64,000 nt of DNA from Candidatus Nomurabacteria bacterium (GCA_023898465.1 CP060223.1:800001-864000), one strand, 5' to 3'. Positions 5,479-56,183 are shown, numbered from the stretch's first letter. Numbers and translations: made by a program. The notes: generated by a model not told the origin, from the letters alone.

Positions 5479-5723
5479 ACTTCAGGCCACATTTGTTTGC
5501 CGTCCTGGTCAAAAAGCTTGATAGCATCCACCGGACAAGACTTCGCCGCTTCTAAAATCATCTCTTCTTCATCACCAATGGGATGCTCTTTATCGACAAA
5601 CTCAACTTTACCTTGACCATCGAGTTGGAAGGTCTTAGCCGCTAAAGCCACGCAAGAGGCCGCGCTAATGCAGGTTTCTTGATCTAGCTCAATCTTGCCG
5701 ATTTTTTTGTCCTTGTCTGCCAT
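5475..5723 (-). CDS. small ferredoxin-like protein (single Fe-S cluster, CxxxxxC…CP)
   Basis: 82 aa. CISAASC … CPVDAI motif. First structural gene after the Rrf2 regulator. Confidence 0.5.
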   Translation of the reverse strand: MADKDKKIGKIELDQETCISAASCVALAAKTFQLDGQGKVEFVDKEHPIGDEEEMILEAAKSCPVDAIKLFDQDGKQMWPEV

Positions 5724-5726
5724 AGG

Positions 5727-6137
5727 TTATGAGCTTACCTGAGTATGGAGTAACTTATCAAGTCGCATTTTGCTGAGCTTAGATTCCATTGCTTCTCGCA
5801 CCTGCACCCAAATATCATGCGTGGTACAAAAGTCCTGCCGAGGGCAACCCTGTGCGCTCCGTTCACAAGCCAGCACATCTAATTCATGCACCGCATGCAG
5901 TATTTCACCTACGTTAATTTCCTTGGGTGAACGGGTCAGACGATAGCCTCCCTGACTACCTCGGCTGCTCTCTACTAAACCAGCCTGACGTAAATATACC
6001 ATTAACTGTTCAGCATAGGTGTAAGGCACTCGCTCCTGCTCTGCGAGATTGCGCAAAGAAAGACTGGCTTGACCGTGCTGCCTGGCCAGACCGAGCATGA
6101 GAGCTAAGCCATAGTCACCTTTAGTAGAAAACTTCAT
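5727..6137 (-). CDS. Rrf2-family transcriptional regulator (IscR/SufR-like)
   Basis: 136 aa. N-terminal wHTH (MKFSTKGDYGLALMLGLA…). Three clustered Cys (CERSAQGCPRQDFC) for cluster ligation. Heads the suf operon. Confidence 0.8.
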   Translation of the reverse strand: MKFSTKGDYGLALMLGLARQHGQASLSLRNLAEQERVPYTYAEQLMVYLRQAGLVESSRGSQGGYRLTRSPKEINVGEILHAVHELDVLACERSAQGCPRQDFCTTHDIWVQVREAMESKLSKMRLDKLLHTQVSS

Positions 6138-6148
6138 ATCTGAGTAAA

Positions 6149-6191
6149 ATACTAAGATATAAAAACTCGCCTGTCAACGTCTACTTTGACA
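6149..6191 (-). promoter_or_regulatory. suf operon promoter (TTGACA-17-TAGTAT on minus strand) overlapping a 20-nt palindrome TGTCAACGTCTACTTTGACA (candidate Rrf2 operator)
   Basis: Read on minus strand: TTGACA (6172-6177) spacer 17 TAGTAT (6149-6154), about 11 nt before the Rrf2 ATG. Perfect 6-bp inverted repeat TGTCAA-N8-TTGACA at 6172-6191. Confidence 0.45.
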
Positions 6192-6266
6192 AGCAGTGCC
6201 TGCAAAATCTATGCTACCCCCATACTCGTTCTTTCACACCCGTTCCCATGCAGGAAAGGAATACTC

Positions 6267-6911
6267 ATGGACGCTCTGATGACCAGCCTTGTGCAGGCAC
6301 CAATTCGCAAGAGTCGGCCGACCTGCGCTCGACGTCGATCTCACCGCTTCCAGCAACTACGTCATGGAACCCGACTTCGCCCTCTGGCAATCGCGCTCAA
6401 CCAACTCAACATCAGACCTTTCGTCAAGGCTGATGTGGAGAGATACAAGCGTGCACGTCGCGCTGAGTGCGAACCAACGCTTCGTCGAGATGCGCGCTTC
6501 AGGCGCTTCTTCCACATCAGCGCTAAGGTCGCCGCGATATTCGTGATAGTGTCTGCCATCTACTTGGCGGTACCTGGTCCGGCTCAATTCGCGGCGACTT
6601 GCTCGCTACTTGTTTCGTCGGTCTACCTGACTGCAAACCTCATCCTCGGCTGTCGCCTGCAGTTGCGAACTTACGTCCGCTGGCAGACCTGGAAAATCGA
6701 AACAGAGTGGTGCGCTTACCCAGGCGTACTTCCCGATCCTGTACAGCTACAGATCGCCAGGATCAAGGAGGTAGCACCGGGCGCTCGCTTCGAGGTCGAA
6801 GACCTCCGTTACAATACCGGACGGGTCTATGACCCACTCCTGTACGCGTGTCTGGATGAGGAACGCTTCTGCGTAGCAACTTGGCTAGGCAAGGAATGCC
6901 GAATCGCCTAA
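6267..6911 (+). CDS. hypothetical membrane protein (Arg-rich N-terminus, 2 predicted TM helices); first gene of GC-rich island 1
   Basis: 214 aa from the ATG at 6267, preceded by SD AGGAAAGGA. About 59% GC against a 48% backbone. Hairpin terminator follows. Confidence 0.45.
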   Translation: MDALMTSLVQAPIRKSRPTCARRRSHRFQQLRHGTRLRPLAIALNQLNIRPFVKADVERYKRARRAECEPTLRRDARFRRFFHISAKVAAIFVIVSAIYLAVPGPAQFAATCSLLVSSVYLTANLILGCRLQLRTYVRWQTWKIETEWCAYPGVLPDPVQLQIARIKEVAPGARFEVEDLRYNTGRVYDPLLYACLDEERFCVATWLGKECRIA

Positions 6912-6926
6912 GGCCACATTCGAGAC

Positions 6927-6952
6927 CAGCTTCTCTCTTGAAGCTGGTCTTT
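6927..6952 (+). terminator. rho-independent terminator (gaccagcttc-tctctt-gaagctggtc + T-rich)
   Basis: Perfect 10-bp inverted repeat followed by TTTCCTT. Confidence 0.6.
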
Positions 6953-6962
6953 CCTTATATGC

Positions 6963-7275
6963 TTGACAGTTTTTCTAGACCGTGCTAACTTATCCCGTTG
7001 TTCGTGACCGCATATGTAGTCCCGGACAACGTCAACCACTGGAAATCGGCGCATCATCGCGCCACGTCACAACGAATGGGAGGTATTCCCTCGATGCTGA
7101 CAAAACTCAAGCGTTGCCCGCGTAGGTATGCGAGCCTGGGTCGCCGGTCCCAGTAGCCCTCTCTCGCACGAGAGGAATCCAACTCGTCCTGCGCCGGGGC
7201 CTTCCACCGGCAATTACACCGTCGAAACGGACGAACCCCGGAGCCCGAAGACATCTGTCTGAGGGCTCCTTTTTC
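6963..7275 (+). ncRNA. candidate small non-coding RNA unit: promoter TTGACA-17-TAACTT, about 280 nt ORF-free transcript, terminator ggagccc…gggctcc-TTTTT
   Basis: TTGACA 6963-6968, TAACTT 6986-6991. No plus-strand ORF above 30 codons. Terminator stem 7240-7246/7263-7269 plus T5. Confidence 0.3.
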
Positions 7276-7277
7276 CA

Positions 7278-7306
7278 TTGACACAAAGCGTATCGTCTGC
7301 TATATT
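7278..7306 (+). promoter_or_regulatory. sigma70-like promoter TTGACA-17-TATATT for the small-paralogue operon
   Basis: TTGACA 7278-7283, TATATT 7301-7306. SD GGAGG at 7336-7340 precedes the ATG at 7345. Confidence 0.5.
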
Positions 7307-7344
7307 CCCCGGTCTCACGCACCTGCACAATCAACGGAGGATGA

Positions 7345-7614
7345 ATGCGGAACGAAGACGCTGATGCAATGCACTTCCACTGGGGGATCACGAACTGCGT
7401 TGTCATCGACGTAGAAGAAAGGCCTAGAGCAAGTGCGGTACGCACTTTTGCTCAGGACAACCAAGCTACTTGTTCAGAGGGAAATGAAGTCCTGGTGCGA
7501 TGCACCTGCACTGAAATTCGACCTCAGCTACTTAGTGTGAGGAGGCTCCAGTCCTTTCTCACCGAACATCGTTCTGGTCATCCAATAAACTCGCCCAAAG
7601 AGGAGGGGGAATGA
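7345..7614 (+). CDS. small Cys/His-motif protein, tandem paralogue 1 of 3 (no recognisable family)
   Basis: 89 aa. Shares NCVVI, (V/I)L(V/I)xCxC and FLxxHxxGH with the next two ORFs. Stop overlaps the next start (ATGA). Confidence 0.5.
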   Translation: MRNEDADAMHFHWGITNCVVIDVEERPRASAVRTFAQDNQATCSEGNEVLVRCTCTEIRPQLLSVRRLQSFLTEHRSGHPINSPKEEGE

Positions 7615-7889
7615 AAGCAGTCAACGCTGGTGAACACGGCAACGAGCACGTCCGGGTCTGCGTTGTCATCGAAGGAGATGAGAACCGAGATATTCTGGAA
7701 ATCTACGCTTTCGCTCGCGAGGTTCAGGCCATCGAGCCTGACGAGCCGCAAGACGAGGCTAGCGATGGAGAACGCGTCTTGATTTGTTGCGAATGTCCGG
7801 GCGGAGACAGACCTCGCTTCGCTGACCATGACCAACTGATCGCCTTTCTCCGCGATCACAACTCAGGCCACCACGCTTCGGTGGAATAG
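7611..7889 (+). CDS. small Cys/His-motif protein, tandem paralogue 2 of 3
   Basis: 92 aa. SD GGAGGGGG. Motifs VCVVIEG, YAFARE, VLICCEC, FLRDHNSGH. Confidence 0.5.
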   Translation: MKAVNAGEHGNEHVRVCVVIEGDENRDILEIYAFAREVQAIEPDEPQDEASDGERVLICCECPGGDRPRFADHDQLIAFLRDHNSGHHASVE

Positions 7890-7904
7890 CCGGAAGGAGA
7901 CTAC

Positions 7905-8177
7905 ATGCATACCGTAGCCGCTACGGCACCATCGAAGCAAGTCAAGAACTGCGTCGTAATCCAGCTAGGAGAGCATCCCTCTCTAGAGACGCTCCTTGCC
8001 TTCGCGGCAGAGCATGCGGCCGTCAGAGTTGACGAGCAACCCGACGAACTCAACGACGGTGATCAGGTCCTGGTCACCTGCAATTGTCGGGACGGCTCAG
8101 GGCAGCAAATGCTCCTCACCGTGCCGGAGATTGAGCAGTTTCTCGAAAGTCACGCCTTGGGGCATCCCTCGGGGTAA
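7905..8177 (+). CDS. small Cys/His-motif protein, tandem paralogue 3 of 3
   Basis: 90 aa. SD AAGGAGA. Motifs NCVVIQLGE, LAFAAE, VLVTCNC, FLESHALGH. Confidence 0.5.
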   Translation: MHTVAATAPSKQVKNCVVIQLGEHPSLETLLAFAAEHAAVRVDEQPDELNDGDQVLVTCNCRDGSGQQMLLTVPEIEQFLESHALGHPSG

Positions 8178-8195
8178 ACTATGCACCTTCACCTA

Positions 8196-8233
8196 GAACC
8201 AGCTGACTCCGGTCTCCTGGTTCTTTCTTTTTC
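8196..8233 (+). terminator. rho-independent terminator (gaaccag…ctggttc + TTTCTTTTTC)
   Basis: 7-bp stem, then T-run. Closes island 1. Confidence 0.55.
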
Positions 8234-8273
8234 TGTCACTCTGGACTTGTTCCGAAGTCTCCTAAACTCAAAA

Positions 8274-9110
8274 CTATTTCAATAACTTCGCCTGTTGCTG
8301 CAACTCCTGTATCCGCTTCCGTTCTTGAGTAGTGAAACCGTGCATATCCGTTAAGGTTAACAACTCCTGTATCGTAACCACTCCGATTCGGAAAAGCTTC
8401 GATTTCATACTCGAGTCTAAACTCATGAGAATGGTGATAGGATAGACTTTTGTCTGCTCAATAAGCTTTTGTAAACTTTGATCAGCCGGATGACCCCAGC
8501 TAAGAATGTGCACGTTTGCGCAACGGGCGTATTTCATTGCTTCGGTGGTACATTTCGTATTTGTAACTAGCCAGGCATGCTGGACATGCTTCTTAGGGGC
8601 CAGGCGCTGTTCATCTTCTTTGGCTTGGAAAGCTTTTCCAATGTCATCGAAGCGTGCCTTAATATAGAGCGCCACCTTTACATCAGTCTTCATGCCGCGT
8701 CGATTATGATACTTGCACTCAAAAAGATGCAGCTGACCATTCTTGCGGGCTAAAATATCAACCTCGTGTGAAACACAGAAGCCGCGAACATATTGATCAG
8801 TTTGCACGCTGTACCCTAAGGCACTCAACAAACGCGCGACGTATTGTTCAAAAGGAAACCCGGTCGGACCAAGATTCATTATCGCTCGTTTCAAACCATA
8901 ACGCATGGCCTGCTTGGTATTGAGCTGGGCTAGTCGACTTTTTGCATAGGAAAAAATCGCTTGCGTCGACTTATGGAGTTTTGGCTTTAAACTTATTTCC
9001 TCAGCCAAACCTCGGGCCACTGTACCCGGCACTCCAGAATTTTGTAAAGACTGAATAAACTTCTCTGGCTGAAAAATCTGGTATTCACCGGATGATTTAC
9101 GGATGCGCAT
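8274..9110 (-). CDS. ATP-cone domain fused to Mrr-like (PD-(D/E)xK) restriction endonuclease domain
   Basis: 278 aa. N-terminal ATP-cone-like MRIRKSSGEYQIFQPEKF. Central nuclease motif HEVDILARKNGQLHLFECKYH. TGcTACAAT extended -10 ends 6 nt before the ATG. Confidence 0.6.
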   Translation of the reverse strand: MRIRKSSGEYQIFQPEKFIQSLQNSGVPGTVARGLAEEISLKPKLHKSTQAIFSYAKSRLAQLNTKQAMRYGLKRAIMNLGPTGFPFEQYVARLLSALGYSVQTDQYVRGFCVSHEVDILARKNGQLHLFECKYHNRRGMKTDVKVALYIKARFDDIGKAFQAKEDEQRLAPKKHVQHAWLVTNTKCTTEAMKYARCANVHILSWGHPADQSLQKLIEQTKVYPITILMSLDSSMKSKLFRIGVVTIQELLTLTDMHGFTTQERKRIQELQQQAKLLK

Positions 9111-9225
9111 AGGTATATTGTAGCACGTACTTAGGGTATAGTCTTGACATTTCTATAAAAATCGCTAAGGTCAGACTGCTTTTGGAGCATTGACATCAAC
9201 CGCTAGAACAGAGGAGGAGGAGTAG

Positions 9226-9468
9226 ATGACGCTCGCAGCTACTGAACTTAGGCCTGGGATGACGGTGCGGAATCTGCGGAGCGGTCTCACCGCTACGGTC
9301 ACCGAACCGCTGAGGGTCACGGGCGATCCGCTGCACGTACACGTCAGGAGGACGATGGAGGGAGGCGAGAGCAACGGTAAGACCAAGTTGACCACCTGGA
9401 GTCTCGACAACGTCGAGATCGTGCCGGTGGCTCAGGAGCCTGTCGACAACGATCGGCAGGTCGGCTAG
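9226..9468 (+). CDS. hypothetical small protein (GC-rich islet)
   Basis: 80 aa. Strong SD GGAGGAGGAG. About 62% GC. Followed by a nested hairpin terminator. Confidence 0.4.
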   Translation: MTLAATELRPGMTVRNLRSGLTATVTEPLRVTGDPLHVHVRRTMEGGESNGKTKLTTWSLDNVEIVPVAQEPVDNDRQVG

Positions 9469-9477
9469 CCCTTCGCG

Positions 9478-9531
9478 CCCAATCCAAAAAATCCAGCTGA
9501 GCTGGACTAAGGATTGGGTGCTTTTTTTATT
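9478..9531. terminator. bidirectional nested-hairpin terminator (cccaatcc…ccagctgagctgg…ggattggg + T9)
   Basis: 8-bp outer stem with an inner palindrome. T-run on plus side, A-run on minus side. Sits between convergent genes. Confidence 0.55.
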
Positions 9532-10312
9532 TTGCTGGGGTCACTACCAACATGACCTTTTGCCCATGGTCAACATCCCCGCCATTCCAATCGTGAATGG
9601 CATTCATAAGCACACTCTCTTCATAGACGTAGTCAGCTCCGTTGCGCGTACCAGGATCATTGGTAATAAAATGCCCATCCTTTGTGTAGCCCTTCACTAC
9701 TAAGGCATGATAAATCGGACCTGGTGAAGTGAAGTTTGGATTACCTAACTGGCGACCAGCAGCTAATACAATAATTGGATGGCCTTGTGCAATCTCCTGC
9801 TTAATAGCAAGAGCAGTCACCGCATCGCCGGTACTCACCTCTACTTCATAACCCCATAGGTCGCGAATGAAGCGTGCCGTCTCTTCGCCGGTTGTATCCT
9901 GGTAAAAACCATAGTGCTGCTCCTCAAAATCTACAATCGCTAAAATGGAACGATCAGCGTCTTCTTTCGTAAGCGGCTCATCCTCCCAATAACGTTGTAC
10001 CATAAGCGCAGCAGTTTCTTCACAGGCTTCTTGGTATGGTAAATCCCAATTGGCAAAAGGCGCCTGAGATGAAAAAGGCACGTCTAAATTTATCTCGTCC
10101 GGCAAAGTAACGACTGTGTTTGTAATTGCCGTATTGGTAGTTGTGCTATTACTGTTTTCCACGCTCGTATTCACGACTGCATTTTTCGCAGTAGGCTCTG
10201 GTAACTCAGGTGTAGAGATCGAATCCCAAGTATCACGAATCCAGCCGCGCTGCCAATAGCCAAGCCCGAGTAAAAGCACTAACGCGATAATAATGATGAT
10301 TCCCTTTTTCAT
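9527..10312 (-). CDS. peptidase C39-like (YvpB-like) domain protein, N-terminal membrane anchor
   Basis: 261 aa. TM MKKGIIIIIALVLLLGLG. Conserved QEACEETAALMV Cys region and downstream His/Asp pattern of the Peptidase_C39_2 family. Confidence 0.5.
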   Translation of the reverse strand: MKKGIIIIIALVLLLGLGYWQRGWIRDTWDSISTPELPEPTAKNAVVNTSVENSNSTTTNTAITNTVVTLPDEINLDVPFSSQAPFANWDLPYQEACEETAALMVQRYWEDEPLTKEDADRSILAIVDFEEQHYGFYQDTTGEETARFIRDLWGYEVEVSTGDAVTALAIKQEIAQGHPIIVLAAGRQLGNPNFTSPGPIYHALVVKGYTKDGHFITNDPGTRNGADYVYEESVLMNAIHDWNGGDVDHGQKVMLVVTPAK

Positions 10313-12947: not shown

Positions 12948-12956
12948 TATTATCTA

Positions 12957-13090
12957 CCCGCCCTCTCACCCGTCATTGCGAATCCCGATGCATATCGGGA
13001 TGAAGCAATCTCGTTACTCAAACTCACGGGATTGCTTCGTCGTTCGCTGGACTCTCTCCTCGCAATGACGGGAGGAAGCGAGAGGGCGGT
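12957..13090. other. 133-nt complex palindromic element (23-bp interrupted outer stem enclosing two hairpins) between truB and the L,D-transpeptidase promoter
   Basis: ccgccctctc(a)cccgtcattgcga pairs with tcgcaatgacggga(ggaagc)gagagggcgg. Inner hairpins atcccgat-gcat-atcgggat and gaagcaatc…gattgcttc. Confidence 0.4.
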
Positions 13091-13136
13091 TAATAAAAAT
13101 CACGACAAGGCAGAGACGCCTTATCTGTGTGTCTAC

Positions 13137-18190: not shown

Positions 18191-18557
18191 CTCGTCCTCC
18201 CATATTGCCAAGGTACAAAACTAACGTAAGAAGGTATCACTTTACGCGACTTTTGTCAATGCAAACACAGCCCGGGAGACATACTCCAAGGCTGTGTTAC
18301 CTGCTAACAGCTCAAACGTGATCAGTACAACGAATCGACTAACTACTTCGTCATAAATGTCCTCTTCTTTGAAGAAGGACGACGAAGGGTAGTTTACTAC
18401 CATCTGATGCTGAGCAACTGCCTATCACTCGGACAATCAATTGATTTGCCCGAATGGGCAGTCGGACAGACATCACGACCTACTAGGTCTCACATACTGC
18501 ACGATAGTGCAAATATATGTAGAGCCATCGTACCTTACGGCACGAAGATTCTCCCTA

Positions 18558-20042
<1,485 letters not shown>

Positions 20043-20370: not shown

Positions 20371-20473
20371 GGAGGAAGGCAGATAGTCAAACTTGCTAAA
20401 AAGCCATAAAAAGCTTAGGTTTTAGATAGATCATTTGTAACTACCAATCATCATGAGAGAACGAGGGGGAGAC

Positions 20474-21211
20474 ATGTCCCGAGAAGTAGCCCGTACAGAG
20501 TCGAAAGAATACCCACCAGATCGCAATGGCAACATCATCCGAGAGGAGGTCAGCGAGCTGGCTGGCGGTGCCGTGCATCGTGAAGGCGGCATTGAAGAGG
20601 GTCCAGAAGCTGGACGCCGATGGAGCAAGTGGGATGAGAAGGAAGCGCGTCCGATCCCGGATGCACCAGCTGAGCTTCCGCTCTGGTATACCAGCGACCC
20701 GACGCAAATCAATGAGCTGCGGGCTCGGCGCTACGGCTTCATCACAGAAGCGTCGGAAAACGGTGGAGGTCCGTTAGCCGGCGACGCCTGGCTGCATGCC
20801 GAAGCTGACGTTGAAGTACTGCCAGTAGACCCTTTCTCGGCTGAGGCTCTCGAGCGAATGAGGGAGCTGAGCGCTGAGAAGCCTACACTCGTGATACAGG
20901 ATGCCGACTTCGCAACTACCTACCGTCGGCATGAGCATGAGGGTCAAATCCGAATCGAGATCACTCGAGTTCATGACAACGGCACCAAGTTCACACGCGG
21001 CGAACACATAACTGGAGACCGCAAAGGTTCCGGCTGGATCACGCGTGAAGCCCCAGTCGACACACAGATTGTCGACGGCCTCGAACTTCAAACCGATGAC
21101 GGCAGTCGAATCAATAGCCTCCAGGTCAAGAAATCGACTTTCAACTTCGGTACAGGGTCGCAGAACCGTCTCTACGTGGAATTCGTTGGGCGTCGGGAAA
21201 GCGAAAGCTAG
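20474..21211 (+). CDS. hypothetical protein (GC-rich island)
   Basis: 245 aa from the ATG preceded by SD GAGGGGGAG. About 60% GC. Confidence 0.45.
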   Translation: MSREVARTESKEYPPDRNGNIIREEVSELAGGAVHREGGIEEGPEAGRRWSKWDEKEARPIPDAPAELPLWYTSDPTQINELRARRYGFITEASENGGGPLAGDAWLHAEADVEVLPVDPFSAEALERMRELSAEKPTLVIQDADFATTYRRHEHEGQIRIEITRVHDNGTKFTRGEHITGDRKGSGWITREAPVDTQIVDGLELQTDDGSRINSLQVKKSTFNFGTGSQNRLYVEFVGRRESES

Positions 21212-27511: not shown

Positions 27512-27559
27512 AGCATAGCGGACATCAGCCATCCTGGTGTCCGCTTTTCTATCCGAAAG

Positions 27560-27591
27560 AAATGCCACCGCACGAGACGATGGCATTTTTG
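27560..27591 (+). terminator. hairpin terminator aaatgcca…tggcattt + TT
   Basis: 8-bp stem. Confidence 0.4.
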
Positions 27592-27908
27592 GGAAACGTA
27601 GACCCGTCCTTGTCTAGGCCCTGACCTGATCGATCAGCCGATGGTAGCTGAGCAACCTCCTGTGAAATCCGCGATCACCTCGCGAAGCTTCCCAGGTGAG
27701 ACCCCTCACAACCTTGTCGTTGCGATCCAGAATGGATCGCGTCCTCCCCGGCGTCATCCCTGACTTTGCCTTGGGCCTAGCGCTATTGGACTTGTTGGGC
27801 ATAGTCCCCAACCCCCATATGCTACCCATCAACCCTATTGTTGATGTTAGTATTAAAATAAACCAATCTTAGGAATTGGTAAAGTATTCACTTCCCACAG
27901 GAAAACGC

Positions 27909-40671: not shown

Positions 40672-40811
40672 AGGCGCTCCTTATGCGTACTCAGGGTATC
40701 TGGAAATAGCCTTCTGGTCAATTATTCCAATACATAATTGACTTTCAGCGCACGTGTGGTAAAACAAAATCCCCTTTGCTCTTTTCTATCCCGCCTCTCG
40801 AAGGAGTCACT

Positions 40812-41585
40812 ATGGCACGCACGTCCTTTGCTGCTGGTACCATGCCTTCCCTGAAGGGCGAAGAAGAGTACTTCGGTACACAAGATCGGCTTTCAGCGAT
40901 TCTCAACTCACATGGACAAACCCAGGTCCCTGGAGGACCGGAGCTATACCTGCCCCGCTCAGTTGCGGAAGATCGGCAAGTGCCTGTCCGCGGAAATCCA
41001 CCGAATCTGCCACGCGAGCTGGATCACGTCAAAGGCATCATGCCGATTCCGGAAGATGTCCCGGCTGGCGCATATCAGATCTACCTGGTCTATGTCGATC
41101 CCGGATATAGCTACCAGGCAATACAGCGAGTTCTCGCTAGAGACACCGTCCGGCATCCGGCCTTGGTCATTGCCTGCAATGAACTTGATATCCTGGTAGC
41201 GTCGGACGAGCTGTCTCCGTACTGGATCTGGCTTGCCTTTGGCACCACGTCTGCGGGAGTGAGTCCGGCCGACGTTCTGCACACGCTACCACGGGGCGCT
41301 GTTCCTCTCACGATTGTGGAGTGCATGCATCTCCTGGTCCAATACGATTGTCGTGAACTTCTTTCAGACGGCGCTATTCTCTGCGCCGGATCGAGAAGTA
41401 CCAACGGCACACTACCGCTACTGCACTTCCACTCCGCCTTTCCGTTCCGATGGGTGCGCCGTGATCAACCGATCAAGCATCATCCAAACTCGACGCTTCG
41501 GGCAACTACCCTCAACTTCTTCACGCCTTTCCGTCTTCCCCTCAATGACTACAAAGGGAAGCCGGGTAGCGCCGCGAATAACTGA
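40812..41585 (+). CDS. hypothetical protein (GC-rich island interrupting glycan cluster)
   Basis: SD GAAGGAG before the ATG at 40812. About 60% GC. Terminator 41590-41630. Confidence 0.4.
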   Translation: MARTSFAAGTMPSLKGEEEYFGTQDRLSAILNSHGQTQVPGGPELYLPRSVAEDRQVPVRGNPPNLPRELDHVKGIMPIPEDVPAGAYQIYLVYVDPGYSYQAIQRVLARDTVRHPALVIACNELDILVASDELSPYWIWLAFGTTSAGVSPADVLHTLPRGAVPLTIVECMHLLVQYDCRELLSDGAILCAGSRSTNGTLPLLHFHSAFPFRWVRRDQPIKHHPNSTLRATTLNFFTPFRLPLNDYKGKPGSAANN

Positions 41586-45041: not shown

Positions 45042-45167
45042 CTTACGCATTGACAATTTTCGTATTTTAGGGTAGAATGCTCAGTCATAATCTGACACCG
45101 TTTTTTGACACCGTTGACGGAAAGTCGTCAACAAGAACTCACGCAACCCTATCAGAGGAGGGGCGTC

Positions 45168-45803
45168 ATGTGCGACTTGATCCGGGTATACTTCGACTGT
45201 ATGCGACACGGGGAGAGGGAGGGAGATCAACTCACCGCCCTCGGAACCAGGCAGGTCTCTGCCTCGGCTGAGGCCAACCTGGCTGGAACGCGCTATCTCT
45301 TGGCCTTCCACACAGGGATGACCCGCACTTACCAGACCGCCGAGACTATCCTTTCTACCCTGGAGGGGGCCGGCTCCTTGACCCCTCGAGCAGAAGAGGG
45401 CTTCGGCGTGGTTTGGGCACTGAATCAAAAGTGGCCTATCCAGACCGCCCAAGACCAGATCAAGAGTCTCGTAGCCAGCGGCGCTGCTGAGACTGCCGCT
45501 CTTTGGACCTCCTCCTGGCCACCCGCCCTCGCCATCCTTGGACGCTTCCTTGGCACGCTGGAGAAGTGGACAACCTATGCAGCCATGCGTGCTGCTGAAG
45601 ACGGATCACCGGTCGGTGATGGAGTCCGGTTCTTAGTGGCCAGCCACAGCCCCTGCGCTGAACTCGCCGCCCTCGATCCTTCCGCCACTCCGCGTCTCGG
45701 CCCGGCTGACGGTATCACCTACGAAATCGAGGTGGACATCAGAAACCTCGGGATAGTGATCACCTCCTCCGAGGTCTGGCGCTGCCCCGAAGGAGTCGAG
45801 TAG
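45168..45803 (+). CDS. histidine phosphatase superfamily (phosphoglycerate-mutase-like) protein
   Basis: RHGE catalytic motif in DCMRHGEREGDQLTALGTRQ. SD GAGGAGGGG. Flanked on both sides by REP-like copies. Confidence 0.55.
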   Translation: MCDLIRVYFDCMRHGEREGDQLTALGTRQVSASAEANLAGTRYLLAFHTGMTRTYQTAETILSTLEGAGSLTPRAEEGFGVVWALNQKWPIQTAQDQIKSLVASGAAETAALWTSSWPPALAILGRFLGTLEKWTTYAAMRAAEDGSPVGDGVRFLVASHSPCAELAALDPSATPRLGPADGITYEIEVDIRNLGIVITSSEVWRCPEGVE

Positions 45804-45880
45804 CTTTCCCGCTCTTTCGCCCTGAGACGCTCAGCGTCTTCACCCGGGCACCCGAAGCCGTAGACTTCTCCAGTCTGCGG

Positions 45881-45965
45881 CTTTTTTCTTTTACCACGGC
45901 GGGACAGAGACGCCCCTCCTATGTGCTTATTATTACCCCATAGCCAAGGCGTCTCGGCCTTGGCG
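45881..45965. repeat. REP-like palindromic element copy 2
   Basis: cttttttcttttaccacggcgggacagagacgcccctcctatgtgcttattattaccccatagccaaggcgtctcggccttggcgg. Confidence 0.5.
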
Positions 45966-46058
45966 GAGCTTATGAAGACTTGAAAAAAACACATGTTCGT
46001 GTATGATGGCCTCGATCACATAATGTACCTTGCAGATAACAAGTAGGAGGTATCAGAC

Positions 46059-46391
46059 ATGTCTGGCTTCGGAATTTCCCTCACTGAATATGAGATAGGA
46101 TTCAGCTCTCAGGATCCTTGGAGTTTTACTGACAGACTCTCCCGATTGGGAGTCATGACCACCCATGGCCTGATCGTCGGGGAACTGTCATCAGGACAGG
46201 GTGACGCGATTCTCTGGATCGATGAAGCATCTCTCTCATCAGTCCCGATCCAATGGGTCGTTCCAAAATCAGCCCACACACTTCATGGAGTCACCACACA
46301 CATTGTGGAAATTCCTGAAGATGAAATCATTTGCTTCGCCGATCCTCCCAAGCCGATCCGTGCCTATGGCATAGACCCCGGACTTCTATGA
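46059..46391 (+). CDS. hypothetical protein (GC-rich island)
   Basis: SD AGGAGG. 110 aa. Confidence 0.4.
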   Translation: MSGFGISLTEYEIGFSSQDPWSFTDRLSRLGVMTTHGLIVGELSSGQGDAILWIDEASLSSVPIQWVVPKSAHTLHGVTTHIVEIPEDEIICFADPPKPIRAYGIDPGLL

Positions 46392-46539
46392 CTGTCCACT
46401 ACGACACCCATCACTTCCTGATAGGGTGTCTTTCTTTTACATTGACCCAATACCTCATTCTTGCTAATCTGGGCCCGCTACTGCTAGCACTTGAGAGTCT
46501 AGCTCATTGGAAATTGAATCCAACCAGTGAGGGAAACAC

Positions 46540-47028
46540 ATGCGACTCCAAATCACCGTGACGAATGATGTCGACGTCGACGTCATTCATCGAGTTCTCA
46601 AATCCCCTGCGTTCGCCAACAAGCTCTTCCATGAGATCGTCGGCACGCTCTTTCCTGAACAGACGGTGGGGCCAGCCGAGTTCATGATCGAGGAGCCGGT
46701 ACGAGCACTGGGCTGTGTCCCTGAGACGCCTCTCGGGATCCGACTCACCCTACTCGAAGTAAGGCAGGATAGGATCCCGGTCAAGACCTTCCACCAACTG
46801 GTGGCAAAGATGACTGAGCTACTCGGAACCGCCTTGACTGCCTACCTTGGACCCAGGGCGGGTCATGTTCAGACCTGCAGCTTCCTGATGCTCGACCGCG
46901 CCATCGAAACGACGCCTGGTAGCGGGATACTGAGCACGGTCATCAACTCGGAACCTCGCTGGGTCGACCTGAGGACCTACCCCGGAGTCACCGAGTCCGC
47001 TACGACGCCGGTCGGAGCCTGCGGCTAG
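46540..47028 (+). CDS. hypothetical protein (GC-rich island)
   Basis: SD GAGGGAAA. 162 aa. Bidirectional terminator acacccgatt…aatcgggtgt at 47042-47080. Confidence 0.4.
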   Translation: MRLQITVTNDVDVDVIHRVLKSPAFANKLFHEIVGTLFPEQTVGPAEFMIEEPVRALGCVPETPLGIRLTLLEVRQDRIPVKTFHQLVAKMTELLGTALTAYLGPRAGHVQTCSFLMLDRAIETTPGSGILSTVINSEPRWVDLRTYPGVTESATTPVGACG

Positions 47029-54227: not shown

Positions 54228-54640
54228 ATATATGCATTATACCATTGACAAAAAGCTCTACCTATGCTATCCTCTCGCGTAGTTTGCAGAGCAGTTGTTC
54301 TTTCGCAAACTCAAAAGAGTCGAACGCTTGGGCCCGTCAGGGTTAAGCGTGAGACTCAGAGGGACATCCTTTCGAAAGCCGAAGTGGACTGGTGAATACC
54401 AGAACACGTAGGCAGGAGAAAGAGATGGCCCGAGAAGATGAGGCGTTTGACTCGTTTACCGAATTGAGGACGCTTTCCGCCCACGGGCGGATAAGTGAAC
54501 GAGAAGCCAAGTAGCGTAACCGGCATCAGTAGTGTTTTTGTAGAATTACCGGACAACGTACTTGCGACCCAAAAGGAATATGGGTCACCAAACGCCTCCC
54601 AACAGATGGGAGTTCTTTTCATCTAAGGGAGGAAAAAGAG

Positions 54641-55321
54641 ATGGCGAATATCGTCGTCTTTGATCCGATCCGTGAACATTTCAGTGACTACATGATTGGG
54701 CTAGCCAGTCATCAGGTTATCGTGAGAAATACGGTCGAGGACGTCAATGGGACGCTCCGATCCTTCTCACCCGACCTGATCCTGGTAGCTGAATCAGAGC
54801 AGTCAGCTGCCGTGATCGCGGCCGTGCAACGGAGTGATCGACGCATACAAGCGCCAACACTCCTTATCCCTGCATCACTCGAAGGACCTGATGACCAGCG
54901 ATGGCAACAGAGCCGTCAGCTCGGCGTCGCGGGATGGATCCCTCGACCTCAGCAACGAGGCTTCAAGTCACTCCTGGCTGAAGACTGGCGACGTAATATC
55001 GTCAGTCTCATGCTCTGGCTATGCAATCAGTTGCACCGAGAGCAACCACTGAGTGTGTGGTTCCGAGAACATCAAAGCGTCGTGGCTATGGTGGGCCAAG
55101 AAACCTATCATCGCCTCATCACCGGCTCATCCATCCAGTATGCACCCGAAGAATATCGTCGACTCCAGAGGACACTGGCAATCTGGGGAGTACGCTATCC
55201 GCTGGATCGCTATCTCCAGGCTGTCGCTCTTGCAGGACGCAAGGCAGAGGCACAGAGACTCTCAGATCGCGTGCTTACAAACATGGCGAGGCGCATGCTT
55301 TCGTCTGAAGCACAAGGCTGA
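54641..55321 (+). CDS. pseudo-receiver (REC-like) domain protein, paralogue A (GC-rich island)
   Basis: SD AAGGGAGG. IVVFDP…PDLILVAESEQ…TLLIPAS…GWIPRP follows CheY topology, but the phospho-acceptor position is Ala and the conserved Lys is Arg. Confidence 0.4.
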   Translation: MANIVVFDPIREHFSDYMIGLASHQVIVRNTVEDVNGTLRSFSPDLILVAESEQSAAVIAAVQRSDRRIQAPTLLIPASLEGPDDQRWQQSRQLGVAGWIPRPQQRGFKSLLAEDWRRNIVSLMLWLCNQLHREQPLSVWFREHQSVVAMVGQETYHRLITGSSIQYAPEEYRRLQRTLAIWGVRYPLDRYLQAVALAGRKAEAQRLSDRVLTNMARRMLSSEAQG

Positions 55322-55352
55322 CTTCTACCATTCCTGCAAGGGAGGTTCTGAA

Positions 55353-56072
55353 ATGTCGCACATCGTGATCCTCGACCAAGACCCGATCCGACAGCTGTGG
55401 TATCAATCCGCGCTGCCGGGTCACGTCATCTCCTTCGTGGAGACCGCCCTCGGAGCGATTCGATTGGTGCAGCAGGTTCCCACCGCTGCCATCATTGCCG
55501 AGTACTTCGATGGGTCTGGCACTCGGCTCCTGGAGGAGCTCGATCGCCTGGTCCGGAACTGTCGCTTCGCCGCCCCGCCAGTCTACCTGACCGGCACCAT
55601 CACTATGCTGGACAACACGATGGAGAAGGCCGTGCAGCTCGCGCAGAATCGTGGAGCTCAGGACTTCATCCCGCATCCGATCAGTCGTGAGCGCTTCCGG
55701 GAACGGCTGGCCGACGTGCTCGAACAAGACAGAGGAGGTCGTGTCGTCGGACACATCACCTTTTGTGAGGCACCGCCGGTCACGACCTCGGAACTCGTCG
55801 ACCTGACCTATGAAATCCCGGAGGCGCGCGACCTGATCAACGCAACGATCGGGATGCGCACCTTCTCCAGCATGCTGAATCGAGCTCTGGCTGTGGAAGG
55901 ACACGGACCCGCCCAGATCGTCTGTGCGGAAATCGGTGTCTGGGCTACGGAAGGAATTCCCACGCTCACCGCTGCTGAGTTCTCGGCTGAGCTCGGCGAT
56001 AAGGAGAGAACGGCCTGTCAGGATATTCTCTTCGAGATCGCCCACTCCCTGCTCTTTGACCGCGCTGCCTAG
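55353..56072 (+). CDS. pseudo-receiver (REC-like) domain protein, paralogue B
   Basis: SD AAGGGAGG. IVILDQDP…PTAAIIAEYFDGSGTRLLEEL…VYLTGT…GAQDFIPHPISRERFRERLADVL follows REC topology. Acceptor position is Ala. Terminator 56083-56118. Confidence 0.4.
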   Translation: MSHIVILDQDPIRQLWYQSALPGHVISFVETALGAIRLVQQVPTAAIIAEYFDGSGTRLLEELDRLVRNCRFAAPPVYLTGTITMLDNTMEKAVQLAQNRGAQDFIPHPISRERFRERLADVLEQDRGGRVVGHITFCEAPPVTTSELVDLTYEIPEARDLINATIGMRTFSSMLNRALAVEGHGPAQIVCAEIGVWATEGIPTLTAAEFSAELGDKERTACQDILFEIAHSLLFDRAA

Positions 56073-56183
56073 CGCAACCCGAGGCGTCTACTTTCCCCAA
56101 GTAGGCGCCTTTCTTCTTGACTTTTTTATCTAAGTGGATAAACATGCCCACGGACACTGTTCGACAAACCATAGGAGGCGCAC

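Follow-up and report, generated by a model that had tools for sequence, protein, structure and literature searches.

What kind of element is the block of GC-richer DNA that separates the rrf2/suf operon from an Mrr-like nuclease gene in a genome of Candidatus Nomurabacteria (candidate phyla radiation), and what might its genes do? The block lies in a stretch of 64,000 nucleotides (GCA_023898465.1 CP060223.1:800001-864000), which is called the window here and is numbered from its first letter. An initial annotation, made from the sequence alone, had described an island at 6250-8235 with an Arg-rich protein of two transmembrane segments (2-TM), a promoter-to-terminator unit free of open reading frames (ORFs) and an operon of three diverged Cys/His-motif paralogues. 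We found that the block is a ~1.99-kb accessory islet, from window position 6179 to ~8170, that is present in one lineage and absent at the same site from another. The reading that we tentatively prefer is a strain-variable accessory islet of three sigma-70-type units, in which the paralogues would serve as a metal-stapled binding scaffold with a fast-evolving accessory role. Its features are as follows (GC3, GC at third codon positions; L009 and L012, contigs introduced below).

6179..8170, no strand: accessory islet (blastn against L012, junction alignment, GC, GC3)
6186..6215, + strand: promoter of the membrane-protein gene, TTGACA-18-TATGCT (conserved in L009)
6267..6911, + strand: basic (membrane) protein gene, 214 aa, pI 10.1 (ORF; L009 orthologue)
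6923..6950, + strand: terminator of the membrane-protein gene, 11-12-bp stem and U-rich tail (-21.1 kcal/mol, z -7.1)
6963..6991, + strand: promoter of the non-coding unit, TTGACA-17-TAACTT (motif excess)
6997..7275, + strand: predicted structured RNA, ~280 nt (fold z, no codon periodicity, promoter and terminator)
7094..7156, + strand: candidate 20-aa basic small ORF, MLTKLKRCPRRYASLGRRSQ (read from sequence)
7240-7275, + strand: terminator of the non-coding unit, GGAGCCC...GGGCUCC-U5 (-21.8 kcal/mol)
7278..7306, + strand: promoter of the paralogue operon, TTGACA-17-TATATT with extended TG (11/12 consensus matches)
7345..7614, + strand: paralogue 1, 89 aa, pI 5.5 (ORF, BLASTP)
7611..7889, + strand: paralogue 2, 92 aa, pI 4.6, USN53307.1, H6760_04035 (ORF, BLASTP)
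7905..8177, + strand: paralogue 3, 90 aa, pI 4.6 (ORF, BLASTP)
8195..8224, + strand: terminator of the paralogue operon (-16.7 kcal/mol, z -4.4; also in L012)

The islet and its empty site

The empty site was found on a 2,674-bp contig of a related lineage (L012, SRR32105342), which was reached through the two flanking proteins, Mrr-like and Rrf2: the 90% cluster of either one contains a variant encoded on that contig. Its gene order is C39 peptidase, orf80 homologue, Mrr, 155 nt and Rrf2. By blastn, positions 11-477 of the reversed contig (L012rc) correspond to window 5712-6178 and positions 490-1844 to window 8175-9527, with 12 nt between them; the right edge of the islet is uncertain within 8162-8174 in the junction alignment, and 12-20 nt of L012 stand in place of the islet. 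On one side a single nucleotide separates the islet from the -35 box of the rrf2/suf promoter, upstream of which it lies; on the other side it ends shortly before the terminator that follows the Mrr-type nuclease gene, so placed that the last codons of paralogue 3 may fall in host-derived sequence. The islet is carried by the window lineage and its 90% relative but missing from the more distant L012, whose distance to the window is a synonymous divergence (dS) of 0.47 for Mrr and a nucleotide identity of 81% for Rrf2. Divergence from L012 is uneven at this place, with dS 1.9 for Rrf2 (window 5727-6137 vs L012 2239-2649) and 0.47 for the adjacent Mrr-like gene, a pattern suggestive of recombination with breakpoints close to the insertion site.

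The region 5700-9600 is 100% identical across independent assemblies of other runs (L001-L007), and both junctions recur in a 90-92%-identical strain (L009 and L011, SRR17818317), indicating that the islet is not an assembly chimera. GC content is 55.7% for 6250-8235 versus 48.3% for the whole window, and 52-58% in 400-nt windows of the islet versus 44-49% in its flanks, while GC3 is 0.51-0.67 in the islet genes versus a host mean of 0.47. The proposed island is therefore real and compositionally foreign, but the GC of about 59% that had been given for all of it fits the RNA stretch only (59.1%). Based on the empty site and the composition, insertion of foreign DNA is the simplest reading, with deletion in L012 as the alternative.

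Among the classical signs of an integrative element, the islet displays presence/absence polymorphism and anomalous composition, but not the gene, tRNA and repeat signs. No integrase or transposase gene appeared in the ORF list or the Pfam scan, no terminal or flanking direct repeats in the repeat search or the junction alignment, and the nearest tRNA gene, the only one in the window, lies 48 kb from the islet. Phages and plasmids gave no match to the islet in blastn and tblastn searches, and viral, metagenome and genome collections held no related locus with the paralogues, the membrane protein, Rrf2 or orf80 as the query.

Each of the three units (membrane protein, probable RNA and paralogue operon) runs from a promoter to a terminator. 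The motif TTGACA-N17-TAnnnT occurs at 9 sites in the window versus 0.52 expected (17-fold; 0 of 100 shuffles reached 9), and among the other sites are the promoter regions of the 16S rRNA gene and of rrf2/suf. At the sequence level, the islet promoters are genuine host-type promoters, and both TTGACA promoters of the initial annotation are as it described them. The promoter of the membrane-protein gene belongs to the islet; 8 nt separate it from the left junction, and it stands back to back with the promoter of rrf2/suf (-35 at 6177-6172, - strand). In L009, the promoter of the non-coding unit has an identical -35 box and spacer and a -10 box that reads TACCTT, and the stem of the membrane-protein terminator survives an A-to-G change that turns a U-A pair into U-G. 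All three terminator hairpins are stable (z -4.4 to -7.1). The three-unit layout thus holds, but the terminator at 8195-8224 is pre-existing host sequence, also present at the L012 empty site, and does not belong to the islet. As a separate observation, the motif (A/C)GCACCT(G/T)CAC occurs three times here, at 7308-7328 in the 5' untranslated region (UTR) of paralogue 1, at 7491-7511 in its RCTC codons, and at 8181-8192 after the stop codon of paralogue 3. The third copy is host sequence, also found in L012; the recurrence is probably due to chance, although it could be a trace of array recombination.

If the islet were a decaying and functionless remnant of a phage, a plasmid or another mobile element, with the 280-nt stretch as a dead gene, its foreign GC, its lack of homologues, a constraint that is relaxed relative to host genes, and the NCBI annotation of one of the three paralogues only (paralogue 2) and of a truncated membrane protein would all be expected. 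However, all four ORFs are intact in two strains that are 5-24% apart in nucleotides, with ratios of nonsynonymous to synonymous divergence (dN/dS) of 0.23-0.36, and the Shine-Dalgarno sites, an ATGA stop-start overlap and the promoters are conserved. Furthermore, tblastn found no paralogue or other protein remnant in the RNA stretch, and the missing integrase, tRNA and flanking repeat, together with the lack of phage, plasmid or viral-contig similarity, speak against such an origin. We thus regard decay as highly improbable.

The paralogue operon and the membrane protein

The four ORFs of the initial annotation (6267-6911, 7345-7614, 7611-7889 and 7905-8177) were all recovered. It described the last three as translationally coupled; the stop codon of paralogue 1 overlaps the start codon of paralogue 2 (ATGA), but paralogues 2 and 3 are separated by 15 nt. 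Pairwise BLASTP between the paralogues yielded 34-35% identity (E 3e-9, 2e-13 and 3e-13), confirming that they are three diverged copies of one gene. They share the signature Cys-X34-44-Cys-X-Cys-X19-21-His-X2-Gly-(X0-1)-His. A MAFFT alignment of six sequences, consisting of the three paralogues, a 68%-identical allele of paralogue 2, an allele of paralogue 3 and an outside homologue (P0004), retained this Cys/His motif, with C, CxC, H, G and H invariant in 6/6, that is, in every known member. The paralogues are acidic and possess no signal peptide or hydrophobic segment. An AlphaFold2 model of paralogue 3, built from a four-sequence alignment, predicts a strand-strand-helix-strand-strand-helix topology (pLDDT 69, pTM 0.60). 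An internal duplication inside the domain was considered and rejected (hhalign probability 1.7%).

The family is extremely rare. A profile search of 5.8 billion proteins returned the three paralogues only, and an exhaustive hidden Markov model (HMM) search among 1.84 billion cluster representatives contributed a single true homologue, P0004 (94 aa, E 8e-14), which comes from another organism and shows 40% identity; repeating the search with P0004 in the profile gave nothing further. P0004 is encoded on a 604-bp contig of ~54% GC (L008), with a different gene fragment and a hairpin upstream and another Shine-Dalgarno sequence downstream, and its upstream region resembles neither the membrane protein, the RNA or the operon promoter nor the region upstream of paralogue 1. 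Two further candidates were discarded: P0005, which the exhaustive search had also returned, is a eukaryotic Ig-repeat protein whose match is limited to 'VxVTCESRGGDPP', and the match of L010, from the scan with P0004, is an antisense frame of a 4-alpha-glucanotransferase gene. The islet proteins have no Pfam, NCBIfam, PHROGs or PADLOC match; a PDB sequence-profile search gave noise only (Atg31, E 0.07), fold searches with the paralogue gave no match, and nothing relevant was found in a literature search. The statement that the family is not a recognised one is thus borne out in the libraries of the sequence, profile and fold searches.

The place of the islet next to an rrf2-fdx-sufCBD-Rieske-sufS-sufU operon that is without sufA, with promoters back to back, raises the possibility that the paralogues are Fe-S or metal-trafficking accessory proteins for the adjacent SUF system, as analogues of the A-type carriers (IscA/SufA/ErpA). 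The latter likewise use one distant Cys plus Cys-X-Cys, matching the invariant C...CxC of the paralogues, and the membrane protein is also Cys-rich. However, L012 has the same rrf2 neighbourhood without the islet, indicating that SUF does not need it, and an Rrf2 operator shared by the islet and suf had to be rejected because the TGTCAA-N8-TTGACA 'palindrome' at 6172-6191 consists of two -35 boxes that the junction places next to each other. Moreover, neither the paralogues nor P0004 matched Fe-S_biosyn or any Fe-S family in Pfam and NCBIfam even at E<=1, the CxC is not C-terminal and has no CGC context, and foreign composition with fast, allele-variable evolution is unlike housekeeping carriers. 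The link to SUF is weakened most by the empty site and the absence of profile similarity, and we consider it quite improbable.

Rates of evolution were obtained by comparing the window with the SRR17818317 strain (L009, L011). dN/dS was 0.23 for paralogue 2 (dS 0.81, dN 0.18) and 0.34 for paralogue 3 (dS 0.11) against L011, and 0.36 (dS 0.21) for the membrane protein against its L009 orthologue, which is 86% identical. By contrast, the adjacent Mrr-like nuclease gave 0.02 against L011 (dS 0.29) and 0.02-0.03 across comparisons. The rate of protein evolution is thus 10-20 times higher in the islet genes than in the nuclease next to them (0.23-0.36 vs 0.02), and these ratios show purifying but relaxed selection. 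Paralogue 2 stands out, with 76% nucleotide and 68.5% amino-acid identity to L011, where the flanking genes are 92-99% identical and its own surroundings (ribosome-binding site, ATGA overlap and the following intergenic region) are nearly unchanged. Its changes spare the CVVI strand, the FA helix, the xLIxCEC strand and the FLxxHxxG(x)H helix, and the pattern, as read from the alignment, is that of a fixed scaffold with a variable surface. Because dN and dS are both raised, the divergence points to alleles that were imported in a divergent form or maintained over the long term rather than to a simple burst of positive selection. The diversifying pressure that had been proposed for the paralogues therefore agrees with the fast evolution of the islet genes and the hyper-divergence of paralogue 2, but not with dN/dS values below 1 or with the raised dS, which points to allele import.

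The protein encoded by the first unit begins with an Arg-rich stretch of 85 aa (22 K+R, 6 D+E), followed by a hydrophobic hairpin (~84-103 and 109-127) and a C-terminal domain of 85 aa, with 8 Cys overall. It agrees with the proposed Arg-rich 2-TM protein in its ORF, its basic charge and its own terminator, but its second transmembrane segment (TM2) is marginal by hydropathy. NCBI annotates a truncated form of 158 aa (USN53306.1, H6760_04030). Residues 1-34 are invariant relative to L009 while the nucleotide changes there are all synonymous, which supports the ATG at 6267 and the long ORF over the NCBI call. The protein has no family match in Pfam, NCBIfam, PHROGs or PADLOC, and its AlphaFold model was unusable (pLDDT 46) and too poor for a fold search.

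In the accessory-scaffold reading that we tentatively prefer, unit 1 would supply a basic membrane-anchored protein with an Arg-rich cytoplasmic N-terminus, unit 2 a structured non-coding RNA of ~280 nt that ends at a strong intrinsic terminator, and unit 3 a compact operon in which three copies of a novel acidic alpha/beta domain of ~90 aa stand in tandem as old duplicates. The Cys at the start of strand 2, the Cys-X-Cys at the end of strand 3 and the His-X2-Gly-(X)-His at the end of the C-terminal helix would together make up a single metal site of three Cys and one or two His, most simply for Zn2+, that staples the small fold; it is the motif that suggests such metal or redox binding. The rest of the surface would be free to change, and the variable surfaces would bind a partner. 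The paralogues would thereby be cytoplasmic binding modules with a dispensable function, such as immunity, anti-defence or another conflict-type role, and not with a role in housekeeping metal metabolism.

A more specific version would make the paralogues an immunity or anti-defence array, each member neutralising a different toxin or nuclease variant, with the membrane protein or the Mrr/PD-(D/E)XK nuclease as the partner. Such a role would suit small acidic cytoplasmic proteins in a diverged tandem array, one copy of which is hypervariable between strains, on an accessory islet of very narrow distribution, and the catalytic domain of the adjoining nuclease weakly resembles CARF-PD-(D/E)XK effectors. 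However, the islet-less L012 has the nuclease too, under strong purifying selection, indicating that this enzyme is independent of the paralogues. With no polymorphic-toxin gene nearby, no match to defence or anti-defence models in PHROGs and PADLOC, and dN/dS below 1, we judge this version unlikely.

Several points count against the accessory-scaffold reading itself. Cys and His make up 5 of the 17 invariant columns versus 9% of all residues, which is only a modest enrichment (binomial P = 0.017). The paralogue model is likewise modest in confidence at its pLDDT of 69 from four sequences, and the contig of P0004, at 604 bp, is too short to judge whether gene context is conserved. dN/dS stays below 1 everywhere, and an arms race is not demonstrated. 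In addition, the islet carries no toxin, defence gene or anti-defence marker such as a helix-turn-helix (HTH) regulator, and PADLOC reported none among its proteins.

The predicted structured RNA

Between the membrane-protein terminator and the operon promoter lies a stretch whose minimum free energy (MFE) is -114.2 kcal/mol on the + strand (z -4.69, with 0 of 200 shuffles as good) versus z -1.96 on the - strand. A sliding fold scan over 6820-7519 gave z -3 to -5.3 on the + strand versus -0.4 to -2.2 on the - strand; flanking coding windows were mostly at z ~-1, and the 3' half of the membrane-protein gene reached z ~-3.5 on both strands. GC at the three codon positions of the stretch is 0.65/0.58/0.55, showing no periodicity, where the islet genes show a clear second-position dip. 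A 34-nt hairpin forms the 5' end of the predicted RNA, and the intrinsic terminator its 3' end. Its second allele, in L009, covers 28 nt, in which both substitutions are unpaired in the 5' hairpin (chance ~0.07), lending weak support to that hairpin. No Rfam family matched at the gathering threshold, and nothing relevant was found at E<=10 in scans of 2.2 kb and 0.3 kb with lax filters, the best sub-threshold match being CyVA-1 on the wrong strand (12.8 bits vs a threshold of 41.4). Homology to a second structured RNA of the window (54280-54620) was rejected, as the local alignment was no better than shuffles.

The unit was initially annotated as ORF-free. It has no + strand ORF longer than 52 aa, but it does contain the candidate 20-aa basic ORF at 7094-7156, with a Shine-Dalgarno sequence (GGGAGG, 7078-7083) that lies 10 nt upstream of the ATG at 7094 and is sequestered in a predicted hairpin. 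With its own promoter, an intrinsic terminator, no coding signal and excess structure, the stretch has the sequence hallmarks of a small-RNA gene, and a structured transcript of ~280 nt is likely. The element may be an independent RNA, a leader of the paralogue operon, or the mRNA of the 20-aa basic peptide; the strong promoter at 7278 favours independence.

We reasoned that a cis-acting 5' leader (a riboswitch or an attenuator) would let transcription from 6963 stop at 7275 or read through into the operon in response to a signal, with the promoter at 7278 as a second, unregulated input. The RNA is co-oriented with the operon and its terminator ends 70 nt before the start codon of paralogue 1, and the small ORF with its sequestered Shine-Dalgarno sequence (7078-7156) could encode a leader peptide. 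Moreover, a second locus in the window shares this layout without an internal promoter, running from a promoter at 54245 through a 340-nt RNA, a hairpin at 54596-54612 and a Shine-Dalgarno sequence to an ATG at 54641, which speaks for the existence of leaders of such a kind in this genome. By contrast, the paralogue operon has a near-consensus extended -10 promoter (11/12) between the terminator and its first gene, which a leader would not need. The terminator is also very stable with no obvious anti-terminator pairing found, and there is no match to a riboswitch family. A leader is thus somewhat unlikely, though it is the strongest competitor to a separate RNA unit in the accessory-scaffold reading.

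Other cassettes in the window and comparison with known systems

The nuclease gene next to the islet (8274-9110, - strand) encodes an Mrr_cat/PD-(D/E)XK core at residues ~84-202, which has a weak PADLOC match to CARF-PD-(D/E)XK/Csx1-type nuclease domains (E 8e-6). Beyond it lies orf80 (9226-9468), the most GC-rich ORF near the islet (62.5% GC, GC3 0.78), which has no family match; a bidirectional-looking strong terminator follows at 9475-9521. We rejected orf80 as a part of the islet, as it is present in the empty-site lineage L012 (825-1133, - strand; 102 aa, ~60% amino-acid identity). Its dN/dS is 0.38 against L011, and by its distribution it appears to be a separate, older orphan gene.

At least five further GC-rich cassettes are present in the window, at 20453-21211, 40776-41585, 45105-47028, 54641-56072 and 9226-9468, with GC of 0.55-0.63 and GC3 of 0.55-0.78 versus 0.41-0.52 in host ORFs. 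All are on the + strand, where host genes are mostly on the - strand, and they are Pfam-less except for a weak His_Phos_1 match. Several are flanked by a TTGACA-N17-TAnnnT promoter and a terminator with a 12-13-bp stem. Acquiring insulated orphan cassettes therefore looks like a genome-wide habit.

The second ORF-free structured unit (54245-54641) has its promoter at 54245-54273 and an RNA of ~340 nt (z -5.96), and its terminator-like hairpin at 54596-54612 is followed by the Shine-Dalgarno sequence and the ATG (54641) of a GC-rich orphan gene. A full-length match to the c-di-GMP-II riboswitch at 54430-54534, in which the core nucleotides are kept and the outer stem is broken, stays below the threshold (23.7 vs 53.5 bits), and the unit may be a divergent riboswitch-like leader. 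Very strong structure is predicted on both strands of three intergenic segments, 12948-13136 (z -8.9/-8.1), 18212-18558 (-7.9/-8.8) and 27512-27908 (-5.0/-4.5). At the gathering threshold, Rfam has no match to any of them. The second is found immediately downstream of the 16S rRNA gene and contains a TTGACA-N17 promoter (18259-18231, - strand). A match at threshold to Rfam weev_FSE (56083-56109, - strand; 40.1 vs 40 bits, E 0.005) falls on the hairpin that terminates the 55053-56072 cassette and is almost certainly due to a chance resemblance between hairpins.

One could go further and join the parts of the islet into a single system, in which a membrane protein with an Arg-rich tail of RNA-binding type, a dedicated RNA and diversifying paralogues would make up an undescribed mobile conflict or sensing module of candidate-phyla bacteria. 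The order of a structured RNA followed by GC-rich orphan genes, found again at 54245-56072, would then point to a family of such cassettes. We regard this joint reading as a long shot.

Candidate-phyla genomes are full of hypothetical proteins, and if its function is trivial, the islet adds one more set of them to a genome rich in them. If the paralogue domain is a new metal-binding fold, it would be a family seen six times (in four 90%-identity clusters) among ~15 billion predicted proteins, and the locus would show how ultra-small episymbiotic bacteria acquire and diversify accessory genes. The predicted RNA, if true, would be a new structured RNA from candidate-phyla bacteria, in a phylum that to our knowledge has almost no experimentally known non-coding RNAs. 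Compact insulated promoter-gene-terminator cassettes together with an empty site would offer a tractable model of gene gain in reduced genomes, and the empty site, the hypervariable paralogue and the invariant Cys/His core give experiments a well-defined target.

Among known systems, the A-type carriers (PF01521) resemble the paralogues in size (~100 aa), in having one distant Cys plus Cys-X-Cys as their only invariant thiols, in occurring as several paralogues in some genomes and in being suf-adjacent. They differ in the spacing between the distant Cys and the CxC (34-44 residues in the paralogues versus ~60-65), and in the position of the CxC, which is internal in the paralogues (~25 residues come after it), has N, E or T as its middle residue and is followed by a conserved His pair. 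They also differ in predicted topology, share no sequence or profile similarity with the paralogues and, unlike these, do not belong to a dispensable foreign locus. C2H2 zinc fingers, including the bacterial Ros/MucR proteins, likewise have two Cys at a strand end and then a helix with hydrophobic-X2-His-X3-4-His, comparable to FLxxHxxGH. By contrast, the paralogues have Cys-X-Cys rather than Cys-X2-4-Cys, a Cys-to-His gap of 19-21 rather than ~12, and a third invariant Cys ~40 residues upstream in a domain of ~90 aa, and no zinc-finger family in Pfam matched them at E<=1. The CDGSH iron-sulfur domain was rejected, as it shares the CxC only: the paralogues have no third Cys or CDGSH box within 10 residues and no Pfam match.

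Tandem immunity or anti-defence arrays are like the operon in their small acidic cytoplasmic products, diverged tandem copies, hypervariable alleles, narrow taxonomic range and strong dedicated promoter. The islet differs from them in having no cognate toxin, secretion-system gene or Aca-type regulator and no PADLOC or PHROGs match, and in its invariant Cys/His core. The predicted RNA shares with bacterial small RNA genes a sigma-70 promoter, the absence of a coding signal, a strand-specific excess of structure and a Rho-independent terminator. However, at ~280 nt it is long for a base-pairing small RNA, it has no Rfam relative or identified target, it holds a 20-aa ORF and it is located on a foreign islet.

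The islet as a whole comes closest to strain-specific genomic islets of horizontally acquired ORFan genes, with which it shares anomalous composition, presence/absence at an identical site, lineage-restricted fast-evolving genes and relaxed constraint. It departs from them in lacking an integrase, a tRNA target, a direct repeat or an insertion-sequence remnant, in that each unit has a perfect host-type -35 box and its own terminator, and in being one of at least five GC-rich cassettes within 64 kb, all of them opposite to most host genes. Taken together, these comparisons suggest that a rare family with no recognisable fold and an unmatched RNA, both apparently new as contents, reside in a locus of a familiar kind, namely a strain-variable ORFan islet with a putative small RNA.

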